A stretch of DNA of 32,000 bases from Erysipelothrix inopinata (GTDB lineage: Bacteria; Bacillota_I; Bacilli_A; Erysipelotrichales; Erysipelotrichaceae), in the NCBI RefSeq assembly GCF_014396165.1, contig NZ_CP060715.1, positions 1,650,001-1,682,000 on the forward strand. Reading direction: 5' to 3'. The position numbers and the translations under genes were made by a program. The notes under the pieces are model-generated. The model had not been told where the DNA came from, ran no database searches, and was given only the letters and a program-made list of their open reading frames with translations. Shown here one piece after another: positions 2,328 through 26,679 of the stretch (positions are counted from its first letter, which is position 1; each line of letters starts with the position of its first letter).

Positions 2328-3463
2328 CTAATTGGTTTTATGATTAATTTCCTCCATGATTGATTCTAAAAGCTTCTTTTCTGAATCACTAAATTCCCGT
2401 TGATTTTGGTGCTTGAAGAAATTTTCAAATTGATCTGTAGGTGAAAGATTGAGTACTTCTGTTGCTTCTTGAAGACGTACGTTGTCACTACTACTCAAAT
2501 TGTGATATTGGATTGAAATGATGTTTGGATAAAATTCCTTAAGTTTACTTTTGGGATCATAAATTGTTTCTTCATCCTCTAAAACAGCTTGAATAAAATC
2601 TTCGCTGTATTGTGCATGCTCGATGAGAGCATTAAAAGGCCCTTTGATAATACGGACGTCCCTTTTGGGAATCAGTGGAAGAAGTTCAATGCTTATTTCC
2701 TTTTCATCAAGTGTAATGTAAGGCATTGACTTATGATCTTTTGCTTCAGAGAAAGAATATTTCAAGGGTGATCCTCCATAGCGAATTGTTTCTTTACGAA
2801 GTTTTTGTGGACGATGGATGTGTCCCATTGCTACATAGTTAAAATCGTTTAAGTAGTTGATGTTGATTGCATCAAGTCCCCCTACTTGCGGTCCGATTTC
2901 TGAATCGGAGAGCTCGGGTTGTGTCATTCCATCAATAAAGAATTGATGGACAATTGCGATGTTCCGTTCAAGGGGTTTAGGTTAATGCCCTTGATAACAT
3001 GTTTAAAGGCATCATCATAAGTTGAACCTGTGAAGTCAGGGTCTATATTTTTAATTGTACTTGCTCGTAAGAAAGGAATGGGATAAAAGTTAACCGGTCC
3101 CCATTCATCAAAAATAGATATCGGTACGATTGGAAGTTCGAATCGCGAAATAAGATGAATCTTATGATCGATAAATAGCTTATCTCCTACTCCTAGACGT
3201 TCAACAGAGTCGTGATTTCCAGAAATAATGATGACTTCATAATTTTCCTTAGAAAACGCAATTAAAAGTTCATTCCAAAGTGTGAATGATTCTGAACTTG
3301 GTGCAAAACGATCATAAATGTCACCTGCTACAATCACAACATCCACATCTCTACTCCTAATTTCTTCAAGTATTTGGTTAAATATATAGCGTTGGTCTTC
3401 AATGAGACTGACGTCTTCAAACCTTTTCCCGATATGTAAGTCCGATAGATGAATGATTTTCAT
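2328..3463 (-). pseudogene. sbcD: SbcD/Mre11-family nuclease, interrupted by a single-base frameshift. It could be a true pseudogene or an assembly error.
   Basis: ORF 2924..3463 carries the N-terminal calcineurin-like phosphoesterase motifs (HLSDLHIG, VIVAGDIYDR, SGNHDS). ORF 2328..2927 carries the rest (GGLDAIN..., AMGHIHRPQ). Shifting frame at about 2972-2975 restores a continuous ...NLNP(L)ERNIAIVHQFFIDGMTQPELSDSEIGPQVGGLDA... typical of intact SbcD. Confidence 0.8.
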
Positions 3464-3566: not shown

Positions 3567-4190
3567 ATGACTGAAAAAGAGAGAATGTTATCAGGGCTTT
3601 TGTACAAAGCTAATGATGAAGAACTAAGACGAGATTCGCATCGTTGTCGTATGTTTAATCACGAATATAATCAAACAACCGTTTTAGACATTCCGCGCCG
3701 AAAGGAAATCATTAAAGAATGGCTTGGATCTGTGGGTGAACATGTTGTACTCGTTCCACCAGTCTATTTTGATTATGGAAATAACACCTATATTAAAGAT
3801 GATTTCTTTGCAAATGCAGATCTTATCATCCTTGATGTCGCTCCAGTTGAAATTGGGAGTCGCGTCATGATGGGACCACGAGTTGGACTCTATACTGCAG
3901 GACATCCAATTGACGCAGCTATTCGTAGTGAGGATTTAGAATTTGGTAAAAAAATTGTGATTGAAGATGATGTCTGGTTAGGTGGTAATGTAGTCGTTAA
4001 CCCTGGAGTTACTATTGGCGCTCGTTCAGTCATTGCTTCAGGATCGGTTGTGACAAAGGACATCCCTTCCGATGTGGTTGCGGGTGGCGTCCCTTGCAAA
4101 GTGATTCGCAAGATTACTGAAAATGACCGTGTCGAATGGCAAAAAGAAAAAGATGAGTACCTTGCCTATCAACTAACTAAAGGAATTTAA
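3567..4190 (+). CDS. maa: Maltose/galactoside O-acetyltransferase family (left-handed beta-helix hexapeptide acyltransferase)
   Basis: The N-terminus MTEKERMLSGLLYKANDEELRRDSHRCRMFNHEYNQT is the typical Maa/LacA N-terminal domain. Hexapeptide repeats (VWLGGNVVVNPGVTIGARSVIASGSVV) follow. The track ORF starts at 3555, but a GGAGG at 3557-3561 sits 5 nt before the ATG at 3567, so I prefer 3567. Confidence 0.8.
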   Translation: MTEKERMLSGLLYKANDEELRRDSHRCRMFNHEYNQTTVLDIPRRKEIIKEWLGSVGEHVVLVPPVYFDYGNNTYIKDDFFANADLIILDVAPVEIGSRVMMGPRVGLYTAGHPIDAAIRSEDLEFGKKIVIEDDVWLGGNVVVNPGVTIGARSVIASGSVVTKDIPSDVVAGGVPCKVIRKITENDRVEWQKEKDEYLAYQLTKGI

Positions 4191-4211
4191 TACCAATTAT
4201 TCTATTCCAAT

Positions 4212-4241
4212 AAAAAAAGCTGAAACTTTCAGCTTTTTTTA
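4212..4241. terminator. Bidirectional rho-independent terminator shared by the convergent acetyltransferase gene and the dlt-like operon
   Basis: The sequence aaaaaaGCTGAAActtTTCAGCttttttt is a perfect stem flanked by an A-run on one side and a T-run on the other. It starts at the stop codon of the 4239..5201 gene. Confidence 0.75.
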
Positions 4242-5201
4242 TACGTGTCGATTCTTTTTCTTAGCAATAATATCAGAATATTCCTTATAATTGCTTTTCC
4301 AAGTTTCGAAATTTGGGTCATCTTTTTTATTTACGAGTTCGGTATTATTCGAAAGGTATTCAGCAAGATAGTTACTTACTTTTAAGGCACCACTGTAGTT
4401 TAAATGATCTCCTGCGTCATAAGTGTCGGTGTTCCAATCAATACCAACTTCATTTAATAATAAATTTAAATCGAGATAATCTATATTATTGTTTGATGCA
4501 ATTTTAGAAACTGCATTATGCTTCGTGTAAGTCCAATTTGATGGACTTGGTGCAGAATAAATAACGATTTTAATATCATGTGATTTTGCGAAGTTGAGAA
4601 TTTTCTCGATGCTTTGTCTCTGGTAACCAGGTATCTTATCTGTTTTTTCTGATTCTCTGACATAGTTCCCTTTGGTGTAAGGTTTTACATCAACTGTATA
4701 ATGATACCCTTTGAGTGGACTTAGAGATGGTTTTTCAGGCTTATCTCTTTTTTTATCGTGCTTCACATAGGACTTCCAATTGTTATGATCTGCGAAGATT
4801 GGGAAGAATTGAGAGAAAAAATCACCGATATTCTTCTCTATCTCATTAACCATTCCTTTATCTCTAAAGAAAAAGTTTGATTCAATGAGGAGCACTTTTG
4901 GTTTTTGCTTTGTTAAAGCTGTTTCGAGGTCTTCAAATCCTTTTAAAAGCGATTGAGCAGAACTTCCGATGTTATAGCCAACATAACCCTTTGTATTCCA
5001 TATCTCCATTGGAGATACCGAGGAATAAGCCTCACTATCACCTAGGATTAAATAGTCCATGGTATTATCTTGTTCTGCAAGAACTCCCTTTAATGCTTTG
5101 GGTTCATCTGAAGGCTTGAGCACACTTGAGAAAGCAACAAGCAATAAAGAAAGGATAATGAGAAATAGAATACTTTTGAATATATTTTTATGCTTTTTCA
5201 T
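4239..5201 (-). CDS. Membrane-anchored extracytoplasmic SGNH/DltD-like acyl-transferase or esterase, copy 2 (last gene of the operon)
   Basis: It has an N-terminal signal-anchor (IFKSILFLIILSLLLVAF), a block-I-like LGDSEAYSS motif and a C-terminal DAGDHLN motif (candidate Asp/His). It is a paralog of 7128..8072, about half identical by eye. The SD TAGGAGG overlaps the stop codon of the upstream MBOAT. Confidence 0.65.
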   Translation of the reverse strand: MKKHKNIFKSILFLIILSLLLVAFSSVLKPSDEPKALKGVLAEQDNTMDYLILGDSEAYSSVSPMEIWNTKGYVGYNIGSSAQSLLKGFEDLETALTKQKPKVLLIESNFFFRDKGMVNEIEKNIGDFFSQFFPIFADHNNWKSYVKHDKKRDKPEKPSLSPLKGYHYTVDVKPYTKGNYVRESEKTDKIPGYQRQSIEKILNFAKSHDIKIVIYSAPSPSNWTYTKHNAVSKIASNNNIDYLDLNLLLNEVGIDWNTDTYDAGDHLNYSGALKVSNYLAEYLSNNTELVNKKDDPNFETWKSNYKEYSDIIAKKKNRHV

Positions 5202-5210
5202 GTTATCCTC

Positions 5211-6800
5211 CTAAAATCCTGCATAGATGATATCTACAGGTGCATACCCGTTACCATATGCTCCAAAAATTACGATTACTAAAATAAATGTGTAGGTCAG
5301 ACTCCAACGTGCCCATGTTGGCCACGTGATAACCGTTTGGAATGGATCGAACCCCTTCTCTTTCAACATATCAACTGCGAAGACGACGATAACTGCAATG
5401 AGGACTACTGCTATATCGACGATGTTGAAAGCAGGAACACTGTTTAGTCCATTTACAAAATATGAAAGTCGAAATTTAAAGATGACATTTTTAAACATCA
5501 TAATGAGCTTTTGGATACTTTCGACTCTGAAGATTAGCTCACCAAAGATAATAATCACAGACATTTTTACTGTTTGAATAAACCTTAAGGTGAACGGATG
5601 TTGATCTAACTTCAAGACGTCTTTAATTTTGATAAATACCGGTTCAAATATAAGAGCTAATGTGATTAAGGTAAAATAATACATTCCGTATAAAACAAAA
5701 TTCCATCCAGCACCATGCCAAAAGCCATTGCAAAGCCAAACAACAAACAATGCAATTGCATTCGTAATGATAAGCGACGCATTTTTACCGAATTTTTTTC
5801 GTGTTTTCTTTGTCAGTGATTTAATATGGCGCGAAAGCATAACTGGATAAAAGACATAGTCCTTTAACCATGCTCCAAGTGTCATATGCCAGCGTTTCCA
5901 AAATTCTGTAACAGTCTTAGCAAAGAATGGTTGGCGAAAGTTTTCAGGTACTTTAATATTGAATATATCACTGGTTCCGATACAAATATCAACGATACCG
6001 GAAAAGTCCATATATAATTGGATAGTATAAATGAGTGCTCCAAACAAGATAACTGATCCTGAAAAATTACTATGATTCACATCAAGGATTGCGGAAACAA
6101 GTGCATTGAGACGATCCGCGATTACTATCTTTTTAAAGAATCCCCAGATGATTCGTTGCAAACCGCCACTAAGCGATGTCATTGTAATAGGATTCCCAGC
6201 ATATAATGATGGCGCAATATCGTTATATCTTGTAATCGGTCCCTGCATGATAGTTGGAAAAAAACAAAGATAGAGACACAATTTTAGAAAGTTCTTTTCG
6301 GGTTGAATGACACCTCTATAAATATCCACGCAATATGATATTGCCTGAAGTGAATAGAATGAAATCCCCAGTGGAACAATAAATTTCATAATTGGAATTT
6401 CAACACCAAAAGAAAGTGATGAAACTATTGTTTGGACGTTTTTAGAAATAAAGGGTGAATATTTCAATACAATCAGAATAAGAAGTACGAACCCAATAAC
6501 TATTTTCAAGAAATGTCTCTTTTTAATGAGTGCTTGTGTCTTTAATTCACGGAGATTCTGACTTGCTTCATCCTCTTTAGGAATACTTTTAGAATCGATA
6601 TGACTGATACCCAATCCGAATAAATATATCAACAACGTCGTAAGTAAAACAAATACAAATTGCCACTTACTGATTAAAATATAGAATACAAAACTTGAAA
6701 ACAGTAAAACCCCCCAGCGAAACTTTTTAGGGGCTAACTGATAACTTAGTAGTGTAATGGGGAGAAAAAGTACAAAATATACGGGCGATACGTATGACAC
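5211..6800 (-). CDS. MBOAT-family membrane O-acyltransferase (DltB/AlgI-like) with a C-terminal DltX-like extension, copy 2
   Basis: The protein is polytopic and hydrophobic. It carries the MBOAT signature NFRQPFFAKTVTEFWKRWHMTLGAWLKDYVFYP with the invariant His. The C-terminus is ...FGAYGNGYAPVDIIYAGF. The GTG start at 6800 shares its G with the TAG stop of the carrier gene. Confidence 0.85.
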   Translation of the reverse strand: MSYVSPVYFVLFLPITLLSYQLAPKKFRWGVLLFSSFVFYILISKWQFVFVLLTTLLIYLFGLGISHIDSKSIPKEDEASQNLRELKTQALIKKRHFLKIVIGFVLLILIVLKYSPFISKNVQTIVSSLSFGVEIPIMKFIVPLGISFYSLQAISYCVDIYRGVIQPEKNFLKLCLYLCFFPTIMQGPITRYNDIAPSLYAGNPITMTSLSGGLQRIIWGFFKKIVIADRLNALVSAILDVNHSNFSGSVILFGALIYTIQLYMDFSGIVDICIGTSDIFNIKVPENFRQPFFAKTVTEFWKRWHMTLGAWLKDYVFYPVMLSRHIKSLTKKTRKKFGKNASLIITNAIALFVVWLCNGFWHGAGWNFVLYGMYYFTLITLALIFEPVFIKIKDVLKLDQHPFTLRFIQTVKMSVIIIFGELIFRVESIQKLIMMFKNVIFKFRLSYFVNGLNSVPAFNIVDIAVVLIAVIVVFAVDMLKEKGFDPFQTVITWPTWARWSLTYTFILVIVIFGAYGNGYAPVDIIYAGF

Positions 6801-7030
6801 TATGCTTCGTCTCGCAATCTACACATTAAGTTCCATAATGCACTCGCTGAGTTAAAGTTAGCTGGCACTAAATCGATGGGCGAAATGTCAACATCGAATT
6901 CTGATTCAAGTTCGGTAACGAGTTCAAGAATTGACATAGAGTCTAAATGTCCCCCGTCTACAAGATCGGTTACTGTATCATAATCGATAGTAGGATTAAT
7001 TTGATTTAAAATTGCTAGTAGTTTTTCCAT
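6800..7030 (-). CDS. DltC-like aminoacyl carrier protein (phosphopantetheine attachment site), copy 2
   Basis: The protein reads MEKLLAILNQINPTIDYDTVTDLVDGGHLDSMSILELVTELESEFDVDISPIDLVPANFNS..., with the LDS Ser motif in the DltC position. The track ORF starts at 7063, but an AAAGGAG SD sits 6 nt before the ATG at 7030. That start gives 76 aa, the same length as copy 1. Confidence 0.85.
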   Translation of the reverse strand: MEKLLAILNQINPTIDYDTVTDLVDGGHLDSMSILELVTELESEFDVDISPIDLVPANFNSASALWNLMCRLRDEA

Positions 7031-7127
7031 GTTTGTCTCCTTTAGTATTAAGTATTTCTTCACTTAATATTCTAGTATGTATTGATAACAAATAAGTGTA
7101 AGAATGATGATAAATTGTAAATCACAC

Positions 7128-8072
7128 TTAAGATTTTTTTGCTTTGATTATTTCTGCGTATTTTTGATAATCTTCTTCCCAATTAGTATAATTGGAATTG
7201 TGTCGCAAATCCTCTAAGTTTGTATTCTTTGATAAGTACTCCGATATATATTTTGTAACTTTTAGCGTACCATTAAAATTTAGATGGTCGCCAGCATCAT
7301 AGGTATCTTTGTTCCAATCAATTTCTAATTGTTTCGTAAGTAGATTAAGATCAACGTATTCGCAACCATATTCCTTTGCCAGATCTGCTACTGTATTATG
7401 ATTTGAATAGCCCCAATTTACAGGAGTAGGTGCTGAGTAGAAGATAACTTTTATATCATTGTTATTACAAATTTCCATAATTTGATCAAGAATAAATTTT
7501 TGATACGTTGGTACAGATACTCTATTTTGAGTTGGATTAACATATTCCCCTTTTGTATAAGGTTTTACCTCAAAGCGGTATCGATATCCTTTCAGTGGAT
7601 TTGAAACAAACTCTTGATCATCAAAGGACGGTAATTTTCCTTCTTTGATCATCTTTTTCCAATTTGTATGATCATTAAATATTGAAAAGTGGTTCGTGAA
7701 TAATGTTGATATGAAACTTTCCGCATCATTAATGAACCCTTTGTTTCTGAATATAAAATTAGATTCAATTAATAATATTTTAGGCTTTTGATTCTCAATT
7801 GCTTTTTGAAAAACATCCAACCCTCTCTGAAGTGTTTGTGCGGAAACTCCCAGATTGTAGCCTGTATACCCTCTTTCATTCCAAATTTCCATGGGCGAAA
7901 TAGAAGTATAGGCCTCACTATCTCCGAGAACTAGATAATCAACCGAATTTTCTTTTTCCGATTCAATACCAGATATTTCTTTAACAGAAAATCCCTTTGA
8001 AAGAACCAGTAAAATAAGTCCAAGTATTGTGACAAAGAGTATGAATTTCATAAGTTTTTTTCCTTTTTTCAT
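7128..8072 (-). CDS. Membrane-anchored extracytoplasmic SGNH/DltD-like acyl-transferase or esterase, copy 1
   Basis: It has an N-terminal anchor (LMKFILFVTILGLILLVL), a VLGDSEAYTS motif and a DAGDHLN motif. The SD TAGGAGG overlaps the stop of the upstream MBOAT. Confidence 0.65.
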   Translation of the reverse strand: MKKGKKLMKFILFVTILGLILLVLSKGFSVKEISGIESEKENSVDYLVLGDSEAYTSISPMEIWNERGYTGYNLGVSAQTLQRGLDVFQKAIENQKPKILLIESNFIFRNKGFINDAESFISTLFTNHFSIFNDHTNWKKMIKEGKLPSFDDQEFVSNPLKGYRYRFEVKPYTKGEYVNPTQNRVSVPTYQKFILDQIMEICNNNDIKVIFYSAPTPVNWGYSNHNTVADLAKEYGCEYVDLNLLTKQLEIDWNKDTYDAGDHLNFNGTLKVTKYISEYLSKNTNLEDLRHNSNYTNWEEDYQKYAEIIKAKKS

Positions 8073-8082
8073 TCAAGACCTC

Positions 8083-9672
8083 CTAGAATCCAGCGTAAAT
8101 AATATCTACTGGGGTGTATCCGTTGCCATATGCGCCGAAGACAACAATTGATACTATGAAGACATAGGAAAGTGTCCAACGTGCCCAGATTGGCAAGGAA
8201 TTTAGTTTATCAAGAGGGTTAATATTACGTTCTTTAAGGAAATCTACAATAAATACGAGTATTATTGCAATCAGAACAATCCAAGCGTCCCCTATGTCAA
8301 ACTTGAAACGTGCCAATAAATCTGTAGTGAGCTCAGAAACATTAAAATTAAATAAAATATTCTTGAAAATGATCAATATCTTACGTATACTCTCCACACG
8401 GAATATAAGTTCACCAATCATTATGATTAGTGCCATTTTGGTTGCTTGAATCGTACGTAACAATATCTTATGGTTGTCGAGGTGTAATATTGTTTTGACT
8501 TTTTCCATAAACGGTTCAACAATCAAAGCAAGTGTAATGAGTGTGAAATAATACATCCCATACATGACAAAATTCCAACCTGAACCATGCCAGAATCCAT
8601 TACATAACCAAACCACAAACAACGCAATCGCATTAGTAATAATTAAAGAGGCATGTTTTCCAAACTTTTTACGCGTTTTCTTAGTCAATGATTTAATTCT
8701 TCGGGATAACATGACCGGATAGAATACATAATCTTTCAACCATGATCCCAAAGTAATATGCCAACGTTTCCAAAAGTCAGTCACTGTTTTTGCAAAAAAT
8801 GGTTGTCTGAAGTTTTCGGGAAGTTTGATATTGAAAATTTCGGCGGTGCCTAAACTAATATCTACAATACCGGAGAAATCCATGTAGAGCTGAATGGTAT
8901 AGATTGCTGCCCCTAAAAGCATAATTGAACCTGCAAATTGCGCATTATCAGCATCGATAATTGCAATCACAAGTGAGTTGAGGCGATCAGCAATCATTAT
9001 TTTTTTGAAAAGACCCCAGAAGATTCGCTGGATACCATGAACAAACGAATCGGAGTTAATGGCTGTTCCTGCAAAGAGTGTCTCTTTAACATCACTATAA
9101 CGTGCAATCGGTCCTTGCATAATTGTAGGGAAGAAACTGAGAAAAAGAAGTAATTTAAAATAGTTTCTTTCAGCTGAAACGACGCCTCTATAGACATCAA
9201 CACAGTATGAAATGGCTTGTAAAGAATAGAAAGAGATACCCAAAGGAACCACAAACTTTAATATTGGAACTTTAGCTTCTATTGACAGATAAGCCAGAGC
9301 CGAATTTATAGAAGATGTAATGAAAGGCGCATACTTTAGAACTATTAGTGTTCCGAGGATTATAATAATCGTCCACTTTGTTACCCTCTTCTTTTTGAAT
9401 TGGCTTTGTTGTCTTTCAACAGTCGCAATTTCAGGTTCAAGATCCTGTTTCACTAAGCTTCGTTTCGAAATGAAATCAAGCAACAACCCCGCACTATAAA
9501 TTACGAATGTTGTGATGATTATGATTAAAATCAACCATGAACTTACAAGAAAATAAAATAGCATACTTACCAATAACAACGTTACCCACCGATATTTTGA
9601 AGGGAATACTTGATAAATAAGAAATGTAAATGGCAGAAACAGAGCAAAATAAAGTGGTGAAACGTACGACAC
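8083..9672 (-). CDS. MBOAT-family membrane O-acyltransferase (DltB/AlgI-like) with a C-terminal DltX-like extension, copy 1
   Basis: It carries NFRQPFFAKTVTDFWKRWHITLGSWLKDYVFYP and ends ...FGAYGNGYTPVDIIYAGF. The GTG start at 9672 overlaps the carrier TAG stop (TAGTG). At 529 aa it is the same length as copy 2. Confidence 0.85.
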   Translation of the reverse strand: MSYVSPLYFALFLPFTFLIYQVFPSKYRWVTLLLVSMLFYFLVSSWLILIIIITTFVIYSAGLLLDFISKRSLVKQDLEPEIATVERQQSQFKKKRVTKWTIIIILGTLIVLKYAPFITSSINSALAYLSIEAKVPILKFVVPLGISFYSLQAISYCVDVYRGVVSAERNYFKLLLFLSFFPTIMQGPIARYSDVKETLFAGTAINSDSFVHGIQRIFWGLFKKIMIADRLNSLVIAIIDADNAQFAGSIMLLGAAIYTIQLYMDFSGIVDISLGTAEIFNIKLPENFRQPFFAKTVTDFWKRWHITLGSWLKDYVFYPVMLSRRIKSLTKKTRKKFGKHASLIITNAIALFVVWLCNGFWHGSGWNFVMYGMYYFTLITLALIVEPFMEKVKTILHLDNHKILLRTIQATKMALIIMIGELIFRVESIRKILIIFKNILFNFNVSELTTDLLARFKFDIGDAWIVLIAIILVFIVDFLKERNINPLDKLNSLPIWARWTLSYVFIVSIVVFGAYGNGYTPVDIIYAGF

Positions 9673-9902
9673 TATGCCTCGTCTCGCAATCTACAAATTA
9701 ACTTCCACAATGAATCCATAGAATTGAAATTAGCTGGTATTAAATCTATCGGTGAAATATCGATATCAAACTCTGATTCAATTTCAGTAACGAGTGATAA
9801 GATTGAAAGTGAATCAAGTAAACTGTCATCTACAAGTCCCGTTGCTTTTTCATAATCAATGCTTGGGTTGATTTCTACGAGTATATCTAATAATTTATCC
9901 AT
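9672..9902 (-). CDS. DltC-like aminoacyl carrier protein, copy 1
   Basis: The 76-aa protein reads ...GLVDDSLLDSLSILSLVTEIESEFDIDISPIDLIPANFNS.... It resembles DltC around the LLDS serine. An AAAGGAG SD lies inside the 3' end of the decarboxylase gene. Confidence 0.85.
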   Translation of the reverse strand: MDKLLDILVEINPSIDYEKATGLVDDSLLDSLSILSLVTEIESEFDIDISPIDLIPANFNSMDSLWKLICRLRDEA

Positions 9903-9904
9903 AA

Positions 9905-11089
9905 TTATTGCTCCTTTGCCATGTTTAATGGGTATGTTTCAATCGAATTTCTAACTTTTGTGAGTCCTTTTGCTTCTGAGTAGAAGTATACTTGTGGTAA
10001 GTCGCGACTTAGAAAAAGTGCGATTCCTTCAGTAACTGAGTAGGCTCCTACCTTGTCAAAAATAAGGAAATCTCCTATATTTACATTCTTAAGTTCGCAA
10101 CTCTTTACAAGAATATCGCTTGTCGTGCATAACGCACCACAAAGTGTCCAAGATTCTGTTTCATCGCGTTGCGATACATGAGTTTCAATATGTTTAAAAG
10201 GTGGTGTCTTCATTGCCATTGACTGTCCGAAGTAATTTACTTGGTGCATTCCCCCATTAACGATGGCGATATGAAGGTCACGATGATGTTTTATATCTTC
10301 AATGCGAGTTACGTAGTGACCACAATTAGCGACAAGGTATCGCCCTAATTCTACTGTTACCGGTAAAACTTTTGCTTGTTTCTCTAATGCCTCGTAAAGC
10401 GCAGTCGTCATAACATCCTCAAATTTTTCATCTTCTTCAAAGTAATCGATGGGTAAACCCGGACCATATTCTAACGAAAGTTTGGATGAATCTAAATAGG
10501 GTAAAGAGATGACAAACTCATTGAGTTTTCTAAAGTCTCTTTCATATTTAGTGGCTGCTTTTCGCTGTGTCCCAACAAAATAGTGAATCCCAACTATATT
10601 GAGACTTGGATATTGTGAAATATTTTCGCATATCGAAGTAATATCTGCTTTAGACATTCCAAATTGACTTCCTGAAGATAAACGCAAATAAACATTAAGT
10701 GTGGCATTGAATTCTTGTGAAGCAGCAAAGAGTAGCTCCCAATGTCTTAAAGATTCTGCTGTATAAACGATCGTTGAACCGTACTTTTCCACAACCTTAT
10801 CAATGTCTGACTTTCCTTTAAATACTCCAGAAAGTACAATTTTCGACATATCAATTCCAAGGTCTTCGCAGATATGGAACTCACCAAACGAACAGACCTC
10901 GAAAGTGTCAATATGGGGTTCCAATACTTTCACAAGAAATGGATTGGCCTTCATTGCATAACATAGTTTCGCATTTGAATTAAGATGCTTCCTTACCTCT
11001 GAAATATGGTCCGTAAGTGCATCAACGTCAAAGATATAAGCGGCATGTTCGAATAAATCTTGGTGTTCTAGGATTAGTTTTGAATTCAT
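9905..11089 (-). CDS. Fold-type III PLP-dependent decarboxylase (DapDC/ODC/BtrK-like group IV decarboxylase)
   Basis: Motifs seen: the PLP-lysine motif CYAMKANPF, GIHYFVGTQ, the glycine loop EYGPGLP, ELGRYLVANCG (EPGR-like), CGALCTTSDIL (catalytic Cys region) and VGAYS. An ATGA start/stop overlap joins it to the upstream ligase gene. Confidence 0.8.
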   Translation of the reverse strand: MNSKLILEHQDLFEHAAYIFDVDALTDHISEVRKHLNSNAKLCYAMKANPFLVKVLEPHIDTFEVCSFGEFHICEDLGIDMSKIVLSGVFKGKSDIDKVVEKYGSTIVYTAESLRHWELLFAASQEFNATLNVYLRLSSGSQFGMSKADITSICENISQYPSLNIVGIHYFVGTQRKAATKYERDFRKLNEFVISLPYLDSSKLSLEYGPGLPIDYFEEDEKFEDVMTTALYEALEKQAKVLPVTVELGRYLVANCGHYVTRIEDIKHHRDLHIAIVNGGMHQVNYFGQSMAMKTPPFKHIETHVSQRDETESWTLCGALCTTSDILVKSCELKNVNIGDFLIFDKVGAYSVTEGIALFLSRDLPQVYFYSEAKGLTKVRNSIETYPLNMAKEQ

Positions 11090-12591
11090 AGTGATTGATA
11101 CTCCAGTCTAATTTGTTTTCGGTCAAGCTTGCCATTATTGTTGAGGGGTAAGTTTTCAAATTGCTTGATAATAGTTGGAACCATATAAGACTCAACTTTT
11201 TCAATAAAATATTTCTTCAATTCGGTAGCATCAATTGAACCACTATAACAGAGAATAATTTGATGTTTTTCTTCTATATAGAAGCAACACGCCTGATTTA
11301 CTGATGTATTTTTATAGGCCATAACTTCAATGCCCTCTAATTCAATACGATGTCCCATGTGCTTGATTTGGAAGTCTTTACGACCCACGTAATAAAGCTT
11401 GTTATCGGGCATTCTATATCCCAAATCACCCGTACGATACATGCGTTCAGGATAAACTTTGTTGAGAGGATTTTGTACGAAAAATTTTTCTGTTTGTTCG
11501 GGATTGTTGTAGTAACCCAGGGCAAGACATCTTCCAGTTACACATATCTCCCCTTTTTGTTCGTATTCAGTAATGAGATGATTGGTTTCGTCGAGAAGAA
11601 AGACTTCTTCATTAAGGAATGACTTCCCGATTGGCATCGCATAATCATCATTTAGCGTTTCAGGGATTACTTCATAGGTGCAATTGCATGTAATCTCAGT
11701 AGGTCCGTACAGATTAACGTAAAGAACTGAAGGTAAAGACTTTTGAAGTTTCTTTAGAATGGGTAAAGGCATTTTCTCACCACTAAACATGATTTTATTG
11801 ATATGCTCAGGAACTTTATAACTCAGTCCTTTGAATTGGACGAGCATGCTAAGGGCAGATACGGCCCAGATTAAAGTCGTAATTTCATGATCAATAAGAT
11901 AATCCATTAATGAAGTTATCACAGAAAAGTATCTCTTCGGAATAACAACAAGAGTTGCTCCGGTTGAAAGGGCACTGTATATATCTTTGACTGAAACATC
12001 AAAATCAAAAGGTGCCTGATTTCCAATGATATCTTTATCAGTTATCTTGAAGGTCGTAGTAAATTCATCAATGAAATCAATGACAGAGCCATGACTTACA
12101 ATGACCCCTTTAGGAACACCCGTTGTTCCCGAAGTGAAATTACAATAAAGCGGATCTGTATCTAAAGCAGAACATTGAACTTTATTCAGCACATTTATAT
12201 CAGGTACTTCAGAAATAACATCTTGATAATTCAAGGTTTTTCCTGAATATTGTATTGTTGAAGGAAGGCTTGATTCATATGTAATCATGAGTTTTGCATT
12301 ACTAATATCAAGGATTTGTTGAATTCGTCCTTCATGTTGCTTTGGATCTATGAAAATATAGAAGCACCGTGCATAGGCAACTCCCATGAAGAGGCTCAAC
12401 GCTTCAGGTCCCTTCTCCATAAAAATTATGATTGGGCTTTTGGGTACCATTAGCTTTGAAAATACAGTTCCACTAGACTGCGCATGGTATAAATAGTCGC
12501 CATAAGTTAGTAATTTATCTTCACAGACTATTGCTTTTTTATCACCGTACAGTTCAGCTGTTCTCTCTAAATACTCAGTTATATTTTTCAT
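11086..12591 (-). CDS. DltA-like stand-alone amino-acid adenylating enzyme / carrier-protein ligase (ANL superfamily)
   Basis: Core motifs seen: FTSGTTGVPKGV (A3), NQAPFDFDVSVKDIY (A4), NLYGPTE (A5), YRTGDLG (A7), GRKDFQIKHMGHRIELEGIE (A8, the DFQIK form typical of DltA) and NGKLDRK (A10). At 501 aa it has no C or T domains. An ATGA overlap joins it to the kinase gene. Confidence 0.85.
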   Translation of the reverse strand: MKNITEYLERTAELYGDKKAIVCEDKLLTYGDYLYHAQSSGTVFSKLMVPKSPIIIFMEKGPEALSLFMGVAYARCFYIFIDPKQHEGRIQQILDISNAKLMITYESSLPSTIQYSGKTLNYQDVISEVPDINVLNKVQCSALDTDPLYCNFTSGTTGVPKGVIVSHGSVIDFIDEFTTTFKITDKDIIGNQAPFDFDVSVKDIYSALSTGATLVVIPKRYFSVITSLMDYLIDHEITTLIWAVSALSMLVQFKGLSYKVPEHINKIMFSGEKMPLPILKKLQKSLPSVLYVNLYGPTEITCNCTYEVIPETLNDDYAMPIGKSFLNEEVFLLDETNHLITEYEQKGEICVTGRCLALGYYNNPEQTEKFFVQNPLNKVYPERMYRTGDLGYRMPDNKLYYVGRKDFQIKHMGHRIELEGIEVMAYKNTSVNQACCFYIEEKHQIILCYSGSIDATELKKYFIEKVESYMVPTIIKQFENLPLNNNGKLDRKQIRLEYQSL

Positions 12592-13946
12592 ACTTCGTCC
12601 TCTACTAGTAACGATACCGTCACAATAAATTTACTTGCGGTTTGATGTACTTCAAAGTTACCACCCAGTTGCTGCATAACATTTGCACATGTTTTTAGCC
12701 CAATGTTAGTACTCTTTGAATTCATTTTTCCAATATCTTTAAAATTTTCAAATTCTAATACATAGTTTTCACCACGATCTAAGCCTGTGATAATTACCCC
12801 CTCTTTCAATGCGTAACGACTGATGTTACTAAATAAATTATCAAAGAGACGGTGAAGATACTGAACATCAACGCGTATGACCTTATCGGTTTCTTCAAGA
12901 TTTACAGTTACTTCGAAATCATTTGCCTGAAGATCAAATACTCGTTCATAAATCAATTGAGGCAACAGCACCATAAGTTCGTATTCTTGTGTATTAGTAT
13001 CCATGAATCCTTCATTAAAGTTAAAGGAATATTGGAACATTTTATCGGTAATTAGTTTTAATTGAAGTGTTTTATCTTTACTACGGCTGATATAGTCTCT
13101 TTTCTTTTCTTCACTCAATTCAGGATGTTCATCTAATACCTCCATGTAACCTATCAATGCTGTGAGAGGTGTACGGACATCATGAGACAATTCACTTACC
13201 AGGTCATAATTAGTTTTTACGACTTCTTGTTCTCGTTTCATCTGATCAACCAATGAAAAACGCATAGAATCAACATGATAGGCAAGCTGTGTTAGTTCAC
13301 TACACCCTTCCTTTGTAACAGGATAGTTAATATTTCCACATTCAATTTGTGTTACTTCATCGGAGAGTCTTTTGACTTTACGAATGATTTTATTAGTGAA
13401 TAAAATTTGTAAGAACATAAACATGAGGATTCCAAAGCCTATTGAACCTATTTTGATGAGATTGTACCAAAAGACTTCCGTTGATTCACTGACATATAAC
13501 ATAAAGTTACCATCAGCAAATTGAATATCACGAACAGGATATGCAATGGTCGTCTCTAATACTTCATCGTCAAAACCCTTAACTTCTTCCACAACAGTTT
13601 CATCAAGATAAACAGGATCGGTCTCTGACCAATGACCGGATTCATAAACTACAAATCCCTCTTCATCAATCAAGAAAAGATAAACGTCTGGATTTTGCTT
13701 TATCCATGAGGACATTTTATAGTAGTCCATTGAAGAAAGATTATTATCGACAACATAATCTTCGAATGAATCTTCGTATGCGAGACGTCGTGACTCAACG
13801 GCACTTTGTTTGAGATAAAATTTTTCGATAAGTTGTGCCCCTGTAAGATACAAAATCCAACTAAACAGCGAACAGATAATTAAGCTTATGAGAAAATACG
13901 CAATATGAATTGTTCTTAATCGCTTAAATTTCAAATTTTCCATCAA
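12588..13946 (-). CDS. Sensor histidine kinase: two TM segments flanking an extracytoplasmic domain of about 125 aa, then HisKA plus HATPase
   Basis: TM1 is IHIAYFLISLIICSLFSWILYL and TM2 is IKIGSIGFGILMFMFLQILF. The H-box is SELSHDVRTPLTAL and the N-box is LFDNLFSNISRYA. It overlaps the response regulator gene by 23 nt. Confidence 0.85.
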   Translation of the reverse strand: MMENLKFKRLRTIHIAYFLISLIICSLFSWILYLTGAQLIEKFYLKQSAVESRRLAYEDSFEDYVVDNNLSSMDYYKMSSWIKQNPDVYLFLIDEEGFVVYESGHWSETDPVYLDETVVEEVKGFDDEVLETTIAYPVRDIQFADGNFMLYVSESTEVFWYNLIKIGSIGFGILMFMFLQILFTNKIIRKVKRLSDEVTQIECGNINYPVTKEGCSELTQLAYHVDSMRFSLVDQMKREQEVVKTNYDLVSELSHDVRTPLTALIGYMEVLDEHPELSEEKKRDYISRSKDKTLQLKLITDKMFQYSFNFNEGFMDTNTQEYELMVLLPQLIYERVFDLQANDFEVTVNLEETDKVIRVDVQYLHRLFDNLFSNISRYALKEGVIITGLDRGENYVLEFENFKDIGKMNSKSTNIGLKTCANVMQQLGGNFEVHQTASKFIVTVSLLVEDEV

Positions 13947-14634
13947 TACGATACCCCTTTCCCCATACGGTTTTTATGATTGAATCATTCTGACTTGTAT
14001 CCAGTTTCTTTCTAATATTGAAGATATGAACCATGATAGTATTGTTTGCGGATGCGAAATAAGGTTCATTCCAAATTTCTTCAAACAGTTGTTTCGCATC
14101 GAACACTCTTCCTGGATTGGTAATCAACAAGAATAGGATATCTGCTTCTACAGATGTGAGGTCAATTTTCGAATTATTACGTCGTACTGTTTTGTTTTTA
14201 AGATCAAAGTCAGTTCCTTCAAAGGTCGTAATTGTTTTGTCTTTTTCATTGTATCCATAATTATAAATGCGATAACGTCTGATTAATGCCTCAACCTTAG
14301 CAAGAAGTTCTACTTTAGAAAACGGCTTGGAGAGGAAATCATCACCCCCGTTTGAATAGGCTTCAACAATATCGATCTCTCCAGATTTTGCTGTTAGAAA
14401 TAAAATAGGCGCTTTCGTCATTTCTCGGATCTTAATACACGCTTCAAGTCCGGTGACACGAGGCATCATAATATCGAGAATTATTAAGTCAAAGAGATTA
14501 TTGGAATCGGTGATGATGTCAATAGCATCTTGGCCGTCAACAGCTTCAGAAACATCGTAACCTTTAAATTCAAGTTGCAATCGGATGACTGCACGAATAT
14601 CTTCTTCATCATCAACAATGAGTATTTTTTTCAT
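13924..14634 (-). CDS. OmpR/PhoB-family response regulator
   Basis: The receiver domain has ILIVDDEED, LIILDIMMP (phospho-Asp), LFLTAK and SKPF. The C-terminal winged helix ends TVWGKGYRI. An AAGAGGAGG SD precedes the ATG. Confidence 0.9.
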   Translation of the reverse strand: MKKILIVDDEEDIRAVIRLQLEFKGYDVSEAVDGQDAIDIITDSNNLFDLIILDIMMPRVTGLEACIKIREMTKAPILFLTAKSGEIDIVEAYSNGGDDFLSKPFSKVELLAKVEALIRRYRIYNYGYNEKDKTITTFEGTDFDLKNKTVRRNNSKIDLTSVEADILFLLITNPGRVFDAKQLFEEIWNEPYFASANNTIMVHIFNIRKKLDTSQNDSIIKTVWGKGYRIDGKFEI

Positions 14635-14723: not shown

Positions 14724-14957
14724 CTATTGGCCATCTTGTTGTATTTTTTTTATTATAAATTTAGTTAAGAAAAATGAAATAATCAGTGTGCATAGAATGA
14801 GAAAGATAAAAACAGAATCCATCCAAGATGCTTTCTCAGGACTAGGATAATAACCGCCTTCTGATACAATTTCTGAAATCGATGCAATTATATATTCATT
14901 AAAGAGTAGAAATGTAAATACCATTGATATAATAAGTGCTTTTACGTTATTTGACAT
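14724..14957 (-). CDS. Small (77 aa) two-TM membrane protein of unknown function, directly upstream of the two-component system
   Basis: The protein reads MSNNVKALIISMVFTFLLFNEYIIASI...SWMDSVFIFLILCTLIISFFLTKFII. The track ORF starts at 15002, but an AGGGAG SD sits 6 nt before the ATG at 14957. I recognise no homolog. Confidence 0.5.
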   Translation of the reverse strand: MSNNVKALIISMVFTFLLFNEYIIASISEIVSEGGYYPSPEKASWMDSVFIFLILCTLIISFFLTKFIIKKIQQDGQ

Positions 14958-15026
14958 AGTAATCTCCCTATTACTATAGTAATGGCCTGGTGTGAATATC
15001 ATGTGTAATTTTAATGATAAGTCATG

Positions 15027-23293: not shown

Positions 23294-26200
23294 TTATTTA
23301 CCCCCTATGAAATATTCAAATAGCATCGCAAGTAACGATTTATTATTTTCAATTTGACACAATGTCCCAATTATTCGACCTTCAGCAGCGTGCATTCCTA
23401 TAACCATAGGTTGATTGCTAAGGGTTTCTGTAGCTTCTAAAAACACTTTATCAAATGAGTATTGGACCTCGATTTCGGAATAAAACGCATTGAGACTTAC
23501 ATCAAAGTGATTTCCTAGCTGATTTTGAAATAACGCATTTTCATCGGATACGACACGACACTTTAGATCGCGATGCATAAATTTATGGTGTGGATTTGAA
23601 TAAACTTTGATATCATCACCGAAGTAATTGTGATTAATTAATCCGACAAAGCCAGCTCCACTACCAATTATTAAACCTTTCCTCGAAATAAGCATTTCTA
23701 AAGATTTTTTAACTTTCGGATGTGAAAGGAAAACACTGATTTGTGTTCCACTATTGAAGACGGTGTTAACCATTTTATAACCATCACATAGAAATAGTGT
23801 GTTGTGATTCTCTATTTTATTTACAAATCGATCAATTGAAGCCTCGTAATCATTTGTTTGAATAATTATAAATTCATGATGAATAGAAAGTGCTTTAAGG
23901 TTCATCTCAAGTTCCAAGTCCCCAGTCATTCCTGGCAATATTGGAATTAAAAGTGAACATGCTTCATCGTTTTTAAGTTCAAAATCTGCTTTATCCTTAG
24001 GTGTTGGTCGTAGTGTTCGCCATTTCGAAGTTTGATAAATTTCAGAGAGTGGTTTTTCCCACATATCTATTTGTTTACGAAGTGGTTGTTGGTTGAACTC
24101 CATTTTCTTAAGTGTCTTGCCAATTATTTGATAATCTAAATCCTTCAAAGATTCAAGGTTTTCTACTTCTAAGATTAAAGATCCAGGAAGAAATCCAACA
24201 GGTAGATTTTCTTCGAATGCGACTCCAATGAGCTTATCCGCTGTCATTTCTAAAACTTCGTGCTTTATATCAGTGGTCACAGTTGAAGCAGATAAAATTT
24301 TCTGTTCATTCATTAGTTTATGAATTAGAGTCATCTTACTTCTGTAGTTTTCAATATCAAGCAACGTTTCGTGAGAATAACCTGCATTAACAAGAATTAA
24401 AGTTGAGGTATTTGATTTGAGGGATCGACTGACTAAATTACCACCTTCAATAACTTGGATAGCAAAGCAAAGTAATGTCGGTGGTACCATCAACTCTTCA
24501 AACGTTCCACTCATGGAGTCTTTACCACCCAGTGCTGGAATATCGAGAGCTTTCATAACCTCAAATGCTCCGAGAAGACTGGCCAAAGGTTTCCCCCAAG
24601 ATTCATCGCATGTAAGTTTTTCAAAATATTCTTGATATGATAAGCGAATATTTTCGAGTGATCCACCCATGGCAACAATCTTGGTAATTGCATCTATGGT
24701 TGCGACATAACCACTGTGATAAGGACTTGATTCAGCAATAAAGGGATTGTACCCATGAGTCATTAGCGACATTTTGGACGAGTAGCCGTCTTTTAAGGGT
24801 ATGTACGACATCATTCCAAGTTGCGGAGTGTTGTTATGAAAATCCAAGTATTGACCATTAAATTGCTCTCTTAGGCCCTTTGCGACGCTTTATTCAAAGG
24901 ATCCATTTCGCATTGAACCTCGTGGCTTTGCATCAATACATTTTGATGTTTAGAAACACCGTTGCTATCAAGAAAATTCCGAGTAATAGCTGCAACACAC
25001 GAGTTATCATAAAACATTTCTAATTTTTGAGTGTCTGTAACTTCAGCAATGACAGTAGCTTCGAGATCTTCAAAAAATGCTTCACGAAACATGAATTCAA
25101 CGTCGTCTTTTGCAACAACGATAGCCATGCGTTCCTGAGATTCCGAAAGCGCAATTTCTTCAGCAGAGAGTCCAGGATATTTGAGGGGCACACGGTCCAA
25201 ATAGATTCGTAAACTTTCTGCAAGTTCACCTACTGCTACACTAACGCCACCCGCTCCAAAGTCATTGCAACGTTTAATACGTTTTAAAAATTCAGGTCTT
25301 TTAAATAAGCGAACAATTTTTCGTTCTAAAACCGGATTACCCTTTTGAACTTCAGCGCCAACTGAACTCAAACTGCGTTTTGTTGATGCTGATGATGACC
25401 CAACCGCGGCACCCAACCCATCACGTCCAGTTCTACCACCAATTAGAATGATACAATCACCCAATTCAGGAATTGATTTTTGAACATCTTCTTTAGGAAC
25501 TGCAGCGATTAGAGCCCCCAGTTCAAGTCTTTTTGCTTCGAAGCCATCATGATAATATTCTTTAACATATCCCCCATCGATACCCATCTGATTCAGATAA
25601 TCGGTATAACCTAAAGCAGCATCTTGACAGATTTTACGTGATGATAATTTTAGAGGGTGCGTTTTCTTGTATGAAAGTGTTGGATTTTTGGAACCACTAA
25701 TACGCATAGCTTGATAAGCATACCCTCTTCCGGATAATGGATCTCTTACACCACCACCAATACAAGTTGATGCACCGCCATAAGGTTCAACTTCGGTAGG
25801 ATGATTGTGAGTTTCGTTTTTAAATAAAAGTAGCGTCTCTTGGTTATCCAAAGTAACATTAATACTCGCTGCATTCACTTCTTCTGATATATCCCAATCC
25901 TCAAGAAATCCTTTTTTCTTTATTTCTTTGGCATTGATCGTTGCAAGGTCCATGAGTGTTATGGGTTTCGTTCGATTCAGATACTTTCTAGTTTCCAGAT
26001 ACGAATTCCAAGATTTTAAAATGAGATCTGTGTATGTTCCTTCGATAGAAACATCGTCCAGCACGGTGTTGAATGTTGTATGACGACAGTGATCAGACCA
26101 GTATGTATCAATGATTTTAAGCTCTAATTGATTCGGTACTCTATTCTCAGATTCAAAAGCTTGAAATACATAATCAAGATCTGCCTGATCCATGCCAAGT

Positions 26201-26679
26201 CCTAAAGTTTCGTTTTCAGCATAATTTGTTACACTGTTATTCTCATCTTCAGTGACAAGTTCCATTTCTAATGGATTAACAATATAATCCCGAAATATTT
26301 CAAACTCTTGATATGTGATACTTTCTAGTGAATAAATTAATGAATGTGTGATAGAAATATGATTGAATCCGAGCATGGTATGAACCATTTCTTCAACTTG
26401 GTCTTCGATAAAATCATATTGTCCTGAAATATGTTTTATCTTGAAATGAGTTCTTGGTAAACTTGGTACACTATCGTAGATAATACCAATAGGTTCTTTA
26501 AAAATTTGGTTTTTGATTGTATCGAGTTCGAATGAATTTGCATTTTCAATCTCAAATACGTGAAGAATTCTCACGGATTTAAGTGTTTGTAGTTTTAAGT
26601 AATTTGTAGCTTCAATAACAAGTCTACGACCTTCGTGGTTGTAGTTAGAAAAACGTTCTGTAATAATGGTTCGACCCAT
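23294..26679 (-). pseudogene. purL: Single-chain (large-type) FGAM synthase split by a single-base frameshift. It could be a true pseudogene or an assembly error.
   Basis: ORF 24871..26679 (602 aa) holds the N-terminal domain and the first synthetase half (YWSDHCRHTTF, ETHNHPTEVEPYGGASTCIGGGVRD, GRTGRDGLGAA). ORF 23294..24847 (517 aa, TTG start in the track) holds the second half and the C-terminal GATase-like domain. Shifting frame at about 24876-24881 gives a continuous ...DPLNKASQKGLREQFNGQYLDFHNNTPQLGMMSY.... Confidence 0.85.

Follow-up and report, generated by a model that had tools for sequence, protein, structure and literature searches.

The 32,000-nucleotide stretch of Erysipelothrix inopinata DNA analysed here (contig NZ_CP060715.1, positions 1,650,001 to 1,682,000; hereafter the window) carries on its minus strand one operon, which begins with the genes of a two-component system and ends with that of an SGNH-fold protein, and the subject of this report is the C-terminal tail of the two membrane-bound O-acyltransferases (MBOATs) encoded in it. 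All positions given below are window positions, and all genes of the operon are on the minus strand. Carrier protein A (9672-9902; 76 amino acids (aa), phosphopantetheine Ser31 in LDSLS), MBOAT-A (8083-9672; 529 aa) and the SGNH-fold transferase partner A (7128-8072; 314 aa) form a triplet that recurs as carrier protein B (6800-7063; 87 aa as called, Ser42 in LDSMS), MBOAT-B (5211-6800; 529 aa) and the SGNH-fold transferase partner B (4239-5201; 320 aa), and in both copies the stop codon of the carrier-protein gene overlaps the start codon of the MBOAT gene by one nucleotide (nt). The triplet is duplicated as a block, with paralog identities of 71% for the carrier protein, 62% for the MBOAT (gap-free) and 48% for the SGNH protein, whereas the genes for a DltA-like adenylating enzyme and for a pyridoxal phosphate (PLP) enzyme are present once, ahead of both copies. 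A preliminary description of this DNA had regarded each three-gene module as self-contained; this is true in that the triplet was duplicated as a unit, but only partly so, because both copies depend on the one upstream adenylase and the one PLP enzyme. Translation of 8083-8139 gives FGAYGNGYTPVDIIYAGF as the C-terminus of MBOAT-A and translation of 5211-5267 gives FGAYGNGYAPVDIIYAGF as that of MBOAT-B, each followed by a stop codon, which confirms that both proteins end with FGAYGNGY(T/A)PVDIIYAGF-COOH. Our analysis suggests that the tyrosine of the terminal IIYAGF is probably a built-in acyl relay between each MBOAT and its SGNH neighbor.

Both MBOATs clearly belong to the Pfam MBOAT family (PF03062), with 55 bits for MBOAT-A and 46 bits for MBOAT-B at a cut-off of 27, and DltB is the sole NCBIfam model that they match, at 153-154 bits and thus below the equivalog cut-off of 375 (TIGR04091). 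Residues 85/97-424 are covered by the alignment to the DltB profile of NCBIfam (380 positions), and residues 143-401 by that to the solved DltB chains, which have 414-419 residues modelled. Because these alignments reach only to about residue 401-424 of 529, some 105 C-terminal residues lie beyond the DltB core, and the earlier estimate that the two proteins exceed DltB-type MBOATs by about 100 aa was therefore borne out. The AlphaFold2 (AF2) model of MBOAT-A, which was built on a 64-sequence alignment, has a pLDDT of 88 and a pTM of 0.88, and its closest solved fold is DltB, with a target-normalised TM-score of 0.71-0.73, followed by HHAT and PORCN. The catalytic His362 (codon 8587-8589 in MBOAT-A and 5715-5717 in MBOAT-B) and the funnel residue Asn287 (codon 8812-8814 in MBOAT-A) are invariant in the 64 sequences.

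The tyrosine of interest, Tyr526, is the fourth residue from the C-terminus (position −4) and the third residue of the hexapeptide IIYAGF, which is encoded at 8086-8103 in MBOAT-A (Tyr526 codon 8095-8097) and at 5214-5231 in MBOAT-B (codon 5223-5225). It is invariant in 120 of 120 homologs with identities of 40-96%, whose tails have the consensus FGAYGxGYxPvDx[IM]YA[GNQD]F. In the 64-sequence alignment, R498, G513, Y515, G516, Y526 and A527 are invariant, and the terminal F529 is conserved to at least 90%, with tyrosine as a rare alternative. A HMMER search of 1.84 billion representatives yielded 8,167 relatives of the MBOAT at E ≤ 1e-30, and 135 of the 144 best full-length representatives, which have 30-48% identity, possess an x-Φ-Y-x-x-[FY] ending; the tyrosine at −4 is still present in seven of the nine exceptions. 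The FG.YG.GY element is also conserved well beyond the close family, including these distant representatives. Furthermore, a genome scan with single-sequence peptide patterns, which covered 80 loci from Bacillota, Bacteroidota, Proteobacteria, Planctomycetota, Verrucomicrobiota and several archaeal metagenome-assembled genomes (MAGs), gave 85 long MBOATs with a median length of 489 aa, mostly distant AlgI-like proteins of at most 38% identity that represent a family-wide sample and not a set of orthologs; all 85 share the tail ending, and 83 have it in the strict form F[ILVM]YxxF. Conservation of the tail in orthologs had been set as a test in the preliminary description, and these alignments indicate that the tail is under strong selection.

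The position of this tail relative to the active site can be estimated from the AF2 model. The helix that ends with His362 is followed by helices 366-396 and 403-425, which close the DltB-like core, and then by two helices of sub-membrane length (429-441 and 446-455), a transmembrane (TM) helix (460-481), a short helix (486-491), a last TM helix (495-513) and a tail of 16 residues. The short helix is predicted to be cytoplasmic and peripheral, and the two additional TM helices lie beyond the core that aligns with DltB; the extension that is absent from DltB corresponds to 8134-8295 in MBOAT-A, as delimited by AF2 secondary structure, hydropathy and the ends of the DltB alignments. Averaged over the alignment, the loops 78-100, 322-338 and 482-494 contain 7.4, 6.2 and 3.3 Lys/Arg per sequence, and the tail is slightly acidic, with 0.3 Lys/Arg versus 1.1 Asp/Glu. 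As the chain crosses the membrane four times after His362, the tail would lie on the His362 side of the membrane, and the catalytic-His side of DltB is extracellular (PMC11035591). The model and the charge distribution thus predict that the tail is extracellular and faces the side of His362; a cytoplasmic placement, which the preliminary description had named as speaking against its proposal, is not predicted.

Such an arrangement has been described before. Anderson, Schultz, Walker, Clarke and colleagues reported that DltX bears an FXYXXF "acyl shuttle", and that in other bacterial MBOATs, which have no microprotein of the DltX kind, two extra TM helices carry the motif as the C-terminus of the enzyme itself (PMC12148441). 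PatA auto-acetylates the motif tyrosine in a His-dependent manner, a Y-to-F exchange abolishes the labelling, and the acetylated hexapeptide (acetyl-FIYANF) is an acyl donor for PatB; in PatA, the helices α15 and α17 and the cytoplasmic peripheral α16 return the motif to the periplasm beside the catalytic His (PMC12148441). The extra helices of the window MBOATs match the α15-α17 arrangement described for PatA, and IIYAGF fits the published motif in the form x-Φ-Y-x-x-F. In the Dlt pathway, the tyrosine of DltX relays D-Ala (PMC13653941). The statement in the preliminary description that motifs like that of DltX occur in other MBOAT pathways agrees with this literature as well as with the long MBOATs sampled here and, as the model is a published general one and 85 of 85 long MBOATs end in this way, a fused tail is the rule among non-Dlt bacterial MBOATs and not the exception. 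The fusion of an acyl shuttle to the MBOAT is therefore not a new idea.

In line with a fused shuttle, the window contains no separate dltX gene. There is no DltX-like open reading frame (ORF) of at least 20 aa in 4000-13000, and no single-TM DltX microprotein of about 40-50 aa was found upstream of the dltA-like gene or elsewhere in the operon or window. Four of the 1,216 stop-to-stop frames of at least 15 codons in the whole window end with x-[ILVMF]-Y-x-x-[FY], and two of these are the MBOATs; the other two are out-of-frame stretches of 15 and 19 codons inside other genes and lack a membrane-spanning hydrophobic stretch. The absence of dltX that had been noted earlier was confirmed by both scans. 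As reference, we recovered real DltX sequences by scanning metagenome contigs for DNA that encodes FIYNEF followed by a stop codon, requiring dltA/dltB immediately downstream. The recovered proteins score 56-75 bits with the Pfam DltX model (PF12459; gathering score 25 bits), and their consensus end is ...LLYFxIxLxLLYLYxYxGxGQGxFIYNEF, in which the invariance of the last six residues is by construction, since the set was retrieved with the FIYNEF-encoding pattern. This consensus and the DltX of L. plantarum, which ends with NQAKFIYNEF (PMC13653941), agree with the motif given for DltX in the preliminary description, which was essentially right; the DltX of S. thermophilus ends with FLYFGF (PMC11035591). 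A PDB sequence search with a DltX-like peptide returned nothing, and no DltX chain was found by this route via the DltB entries 8jem, 8jes and 8jf2. DltX consists of a TM helix, an aromatic/Gly-rich turn, about ten further residues and FIYNEF; the MBOAT tails are laid out alike, and hhalign aligned them weakly but in register with real DltX from end to end (columns 15-47 versus 16-48).

The candidate recipients of the acyl group are the SGNH proteins encoded downstream of each MBOAT. The AF2 model of SGNH protein A has a pLDDT of 91 and an N-terminal TM helix (residues 2-28), and Foldseek relates it to TesA and GDSL lipases with E-values of about 1e-6 and to DltD and PatB with E-values of 5e-5 to 1e-4. 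G50, D51, S52, D262 and H263 are invariant, and the sequence of block V is D-A-G-D-H, which departs from the canonical DxxH. The Pfam Lipase_GDSL_2 match to the two partners is sub-threshold; protein A is 100% identical to an Erysipelothrix inopinata "SGNH/GDSL hydrolase family protein", and homologs of it also follow many of the distant long MBOATs. With Ser52 of the GDS motif (codon 7917-7919) and His263 (codon 7284-7286) in partner A, and Ser56 (codon 5034-5036) and His266 (codon 4404-4406) in partner B, both partners are assigned as membrane-anchored proteins of SGNH fold that possess the GDS serine and the block-V histidine. As to the carrier proteins, protein B reaches 24.3 bits with Pfam PP-binding, above the cut-off of 20.8, and protein A stays below the cut-offs of Pfam PP-binding and of all NCBIfam DltC/ACP models.

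By analogy with the systems studied so far, it is likely that the carrier-protein-fed MBOAT acylates its own Tyr526 and passes the group on to the serine of the adjacent SGNH protein. The idea put forward in the preliminary description, that a shuttle is built into each MBOAT and that the tyrosine of IIYAGF is the relay to the SGNH protein, is thus the best-supported reading, because it combines the conservation of the tail, its predicted location outside the cell, the SGNH neighbors and the PatA precedent, and because none of the refuting outcomes named there occurred. In this mechanism, the single DltA-like adenylase would load an amino-acid-derived acyl group onto the carrier proteins in the cytoplasm, where the neighboring PLP decarboxylase-like enzyme may edit the carrier-bound group. 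The acyl-carrier protein would then dock on the cytoplasmic face of the MBOAT, as DltC does on DltB, and His362, at the base of the extracytoplasmic funnel, would catalyse the transfer to Tyr526, in analogy to the tyrosines of PatA and DltX. Since IIYAGF would hang on a linker of about 12 residues beyond the two extra TM helices, the flexible tail could swing across to the membrane-anchored SGNH protein encoded immediately downstream and reach its active site, where the GDS serine would take over the acyl group and pass it to some cell-envelope polymer. As the shuttle is part of the MBOAT, no dltX is needed. The tandem triplets would represent two delivery branches that are served by one activating enzyme, plausibly for two acceptors.

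Several points weigh against this interpretation. The canonical phenylalanine at position −6 of FXYXXF is absent from the window MBOATs: both paralogs have isoleucine, the 120 close homologs have I/L/P/V/A/M and never phenylalanine, and phenylalanine reappears at this position in 89 of the 135 more distant representatives. There is a second invariant tyrosine, Tyr515 (codon 8128-8130 in MBOAT-A, where it is part of FGAYG and lies where the last TM helix reaches the outer side, and codon 5256-5258 in the FGAYG of MBOAT-B), 11 residues ahead of the shuttle tyrosine, and the assignment of the acceptor to Tyr526 therefore rests on analogy. The tail region of the AF2 model has a pLDDT of 63-67, which is moderate confidence, and the topology is based on a simple positive-inside count and on the homology to DltB. 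Finally, the last 37 or 73 residues of the MBOATs gave no match to Pfam DltX at E ≤ 10, and the hhalign comparison has a P-value of about 1e-3 and a probability of 22%. The resemblance to DltX is real at the level of sequence motif and architecture, but homology is not demonstrated, and the term "DltX-like" used in the preliminary description thus applies to the function and the motif but not to membership in the DltX family.

Conservation alone does not prove catalysis, and the moderate confidence of the tail model would also suit a structural or assembly element, such as a funnel plug or a docking peptide for the SGNH protein, combined with a direct acyl transfer that does not involve a covalent tyrosine intermediate. 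A docking role of such a peptide is real in the Dlt pathway, as DltX's C-terminal peptide binds DltD with micromolar affinity (PMC13653941). However, the tyrosine is the covalent acyl carrier in both experimentally studied relatives, with the evidence for PatA given in PMC12148441, and it is specifically the hydroxyl-bearing tyrosine that is kept at −4 in thousands of diverged MBOATs, whereas a purely hydrophobic docking would tolerate phenylalanine. We therefore consider a solely structural role of the tail improbable.

The relay through Tyr526 would be fed by a carrier protein, and this donor is the second aspect that has to be weighed, as the window MBOATs resemble long MBOATs of the AlgI/PatA type, with a median of 202 bits, more closely in sequence than they do DltB, with about 86-94 bits, and the fused-motif pathways described so far are reported to use acyl-CoA and hence to do without a carrier protein (PMC12148441). 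The MBOATs could accordingly use acetyl-CoA or another acyl-CoA, as do PatA, AlgI and WssH, and the adenylase, the PLP enzyme and the carriers would then serve an unrelated pathway. The gene context makes this quite improbable. The carrier gene is always immediately upstream of the MBOAT gene, in the window even with the overlapping stop and start codons, and it was duplicated along with the MBOAT and SGNH genes. Moreover, nine of nine independent contexts across Bacillota, including Erysipelothrix, Clostridium, Anaerocolumna, Enterococcus faecalis and uncultured Clostridia, have the genes in the sequence adenylase, PLP enzyme, carrier protein of 76 aa, MBOAT and SGNH protein. Besides the window, these are Erysipelothrix MAGs with the same tandem duplication (loci L205 and L206, one context), Clostridium carnis (L081), an uncultured Clostridia lineage (L083), a Lachnospiraceae MAG (L002, in which the sequence stops at the MBOAT stop codon, so that the SGNH position is not visible), Anaerocolumna (L207), Enterococcus faecalis (L208), a dTDP-rhamnose/glycosyltransferase cluster (L209) and another uncultured lineage (L210). 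A second type of cluster, found in Blautia schinkii (L007:9995-14520), in L006 and L008 and in other Lachnospiraceae, likewise links a fused-motif MBOAT to an adenylase and an acyl-carrier protein; it consists of an MBOAT of 506 aa that ends with FIYAQF, a 356-aa protein without Pfam match, the adenylase and the carrier protein, and contains no PLP enzyme gene. A literature search, which did not cover the survey of Schultz et al. 2023, found no paper on a cassette of this kind, and a search for dltABCD in Erysipelothrix found nothing relevant.

That Tyr515 is the acyl acceptor, or that both tyrosines relay the group in series, is highly improbable: the invariance of Y526 is shared by Y515 and G516, the FG.YG.GY element is retained in distant representatives, and DltX has aromatic/Gly residues that are about as far from its C-terminus and are aligned in register by hhalign, but the corresponding Tyr/Gly positions vary in DltX while FIYNEF is invariant (in a set that was selected by FIYNEF), published mutagenesis and mass spectrometry place the adduct on the tyrosine of the terminal hexapeptide (PMC12148441), and Tyr515 would be less mobile at the end of a TM helix, as judged from the AF2 model.

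The two enzymes encoded upstream of the triplets give hints to the cargo. The adenylase (11086-12591; 501 aa, single copy) matches Pfam AMP-binding with 191 bits and scores 267 and 292 bits with the DltA models, under their cut-offs of 560 (TIGR01734) and 476 (NF003417). The aspartate of FDxS binds the amino group of the substrate in DltA and in the adenylation domains of nonribosomal peptide synthetases, and it is kept in the adenylase of the window (PFDFDVS). In its pocket motif, the adenylase has FSGE, as do the adenylases of all cassette orthologs and of the Blautia-type clusters, versus F[C/D]GE in 15 DltA sequences from dltX loci. These sequence features make an amino acid other than D-Ala, or one that is bound in a different pocket, the probable substrate. 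The PLP enzyme (9905-11089; 394 aa, single copy) has the Orn/DAP-decarboxylase fold (DAP, diaminopimelate; Pfam Orn_Arg_deC_N and Orn_DAP_Arg_deC), and of the NCBIfam models, the exosortase-A-associated decarboxylase TIGR03099 fits it best, with 161 bits and below the cut-off. Among solved structures, 6knh (86 bits) and BtrK, the L-glutamyl-[BtrI ACP] decarboxylase (79 bits, E 2e-21), are its closest relatives and outrank the classical LysA/diaminopimelate decarboxylases; this suggests that the enzyme decarboxylates a carrier-tethered amino acid and not free DAP. The entry 6knh may be the staphyloferrin enzyme SbnH; a first guess that it belongs to the fluvirucin pathway was dropped, and the literature mention that was found was an iron-metabolism review.

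The operon therefore shares features with several known systems without coinciding with any of them. The sequence-closest group comprises PatA/PatB, AlgI/AlgJ/AlgX, WssH/WssI, PatA1/PatB1 and CcsH/CcsI, in which, as in the window, a long MBOAT has two TM helices past the DltB core and ends with a Φ-Φ-Y-x-x-F hexapeptide (FIYANF in NgPatA, IIYAGF in the window), a separate membrane-anchored SGNH partner adjoins, and there is no microprotein. In contrast to these systems, which are described as using acyl-CoA without a carrier protein (PMC12148441) and have phenylalanine at −6, the window has a carrier protein of its own in strict synteny with a DltA-like adenylase and a PLP enzyme, the window clade has Ile/Leu/Pro at −6, and its cargo is probably an amino-acid derivative and not acetate. 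With the Dlt pathway (DltX, DltA, DltB, DltC and DltD; D-alanylation of teichoic acid), the operon has in common a DltA-type adenylation and a small carrier that feeds an MBOAT, a membrane-anchored SGNH transferase and a proposed relay tyrosine four residues from a C-terminus. It differs from Dlt in that the shuttle is fused and there is no DltX gene, in the additional gene of PLP decarboxylase fold, in the duplicated carrier-MBOAT-SGNH triplet, in the FSGE of the adenylase pocket, and in that all its components are far under the equivalog cut-offs. The peptidoglycan O-acetyltransferase OatA, an AT3-SGNH protein, also hands an acyl group from a tyrosine on an extracytoplasmic peptide to an SGNH serine (PMC12148441), as proposed here for the MBOAT tails, but its AT3 membrane domain is unrelated to MBOATs, its tyrosine is on a loop and not at the C-terminus, and its SGNH domain is fused. 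In BtrI/BtrJ/BtrK of butirosin side-chain synthesis, BtrK is a PLP enzyme of DAP-decarboxylase fold that acts on a carrier-tethered amino acid (glutamate); this is a system of secondary metabolism with an ATP-grasp ligase and with neither MBOAT nor SGNH protein, and the similarity of BtrK to the PLP enzyme of the window is moderate.

The two-component system at the head of the operon (12588-14634) consists of a response regulator (13924-14634; 236 aa) and a histidine kinase (12588-13946; 452 aa), whose start overlaps the response-regulator gene by 23 nt. Two-component systems in this position are typical of regulated envelope-charge modifications, and the cassette of Clostridium carnis, like that of other loci, is also preceded by such a pair. 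In a Pfam search at E ≤ 1e-3, the kinase matches HisKA alone and not HATPase_c, and a HATPase_c match is present in its orthologs from L081 and L083. An ORF of 92 aa with hydrophobic stretches and without Pfam match (14724-15002, minus strand) lies between deoB and the response-regulator gene, where the Erysipelothrix MAG loci L205 and L206 have a called gene of 40 aa. In L209 (1888-13999), which stems from an uncultured lineage, the cassette lies within a polysaccharide cluster with RmlA/B/C/D-like dTDP-rhamnose, GtrA and GT2 genes. This setting hints that the acceptor may be a rhamnose-containing wall polysaccharide rather than teichoic acid.

Two further loci of the window, both on the minus strand, attracted attention. 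The sbcD gene (2328-3463) is broken up into two ORFs with an overlap of 4 nt, namely 2924-3463 (179 aa, the N-terminal Metallophos half) and 2328-2927 (199 aa, the SbcD_C half), which is either a frameshift, a pseudogene or a sequencing error. The large-type purL (23294-26679), in an otherwise intact pur operon, appears as two ORFs that are 23 nt apart, 24871-26679 (602 aa, FGAR-AT linker and AIRS_C) and 23294-24847 (517 aa, with a weak GATase_5 match alone), and this represents either a split gene or a pseudogene.

A fused tyrosine tail alone merely confirms the published MBOAT-SGNH mechanism in one more family. The novelty is the combination of a carrier-protein/adenylase donor and a PLP enzyme with a fused shuttle that has a non-canonical residue at −6. 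According to the current generalisation, a carrier-protein donor goes together with a separate DltX, and an acyl-CoA donor with a fused motif and no carrier protein. The fused-shuttle MBOATs in a carrier-protein cassette break this two-halved rule, which points to a modification of the envelope that is as yet uncharacterised and under two-component regulation. It is possible, albeit doubtful as a whole, that the operon represents a new and widespread envelope-aminoacylation pathway of Bacillota, a hybrid of Dlt and PatAB, in which a DltA-like enzyme charges a DltC-like carrier with an amino acid, a BtrK-like decarboxylase edits the tethered amino acid, for example from Asp/Glu to an amine of the β-alanyl or γ-aminobutyryl (GABA) type, an MBOAT with built-in tyrosine and an SGNH transferase then decorate a wall polysaccharide, the fused form is the unsplit state ancestral to DltB and DltX, or the reverse, and the duplication in Erysipelothrix serves two different acceptor polymers. 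The MBOAT of the cassette offers a natural single-polypeptide model for the transfer from a carrier-protein donor to an MBOAT-linked tyrosine, and a modification of this kind could affect the surface charge, the resistance to antimicrobial peptides and the interaction with the host.

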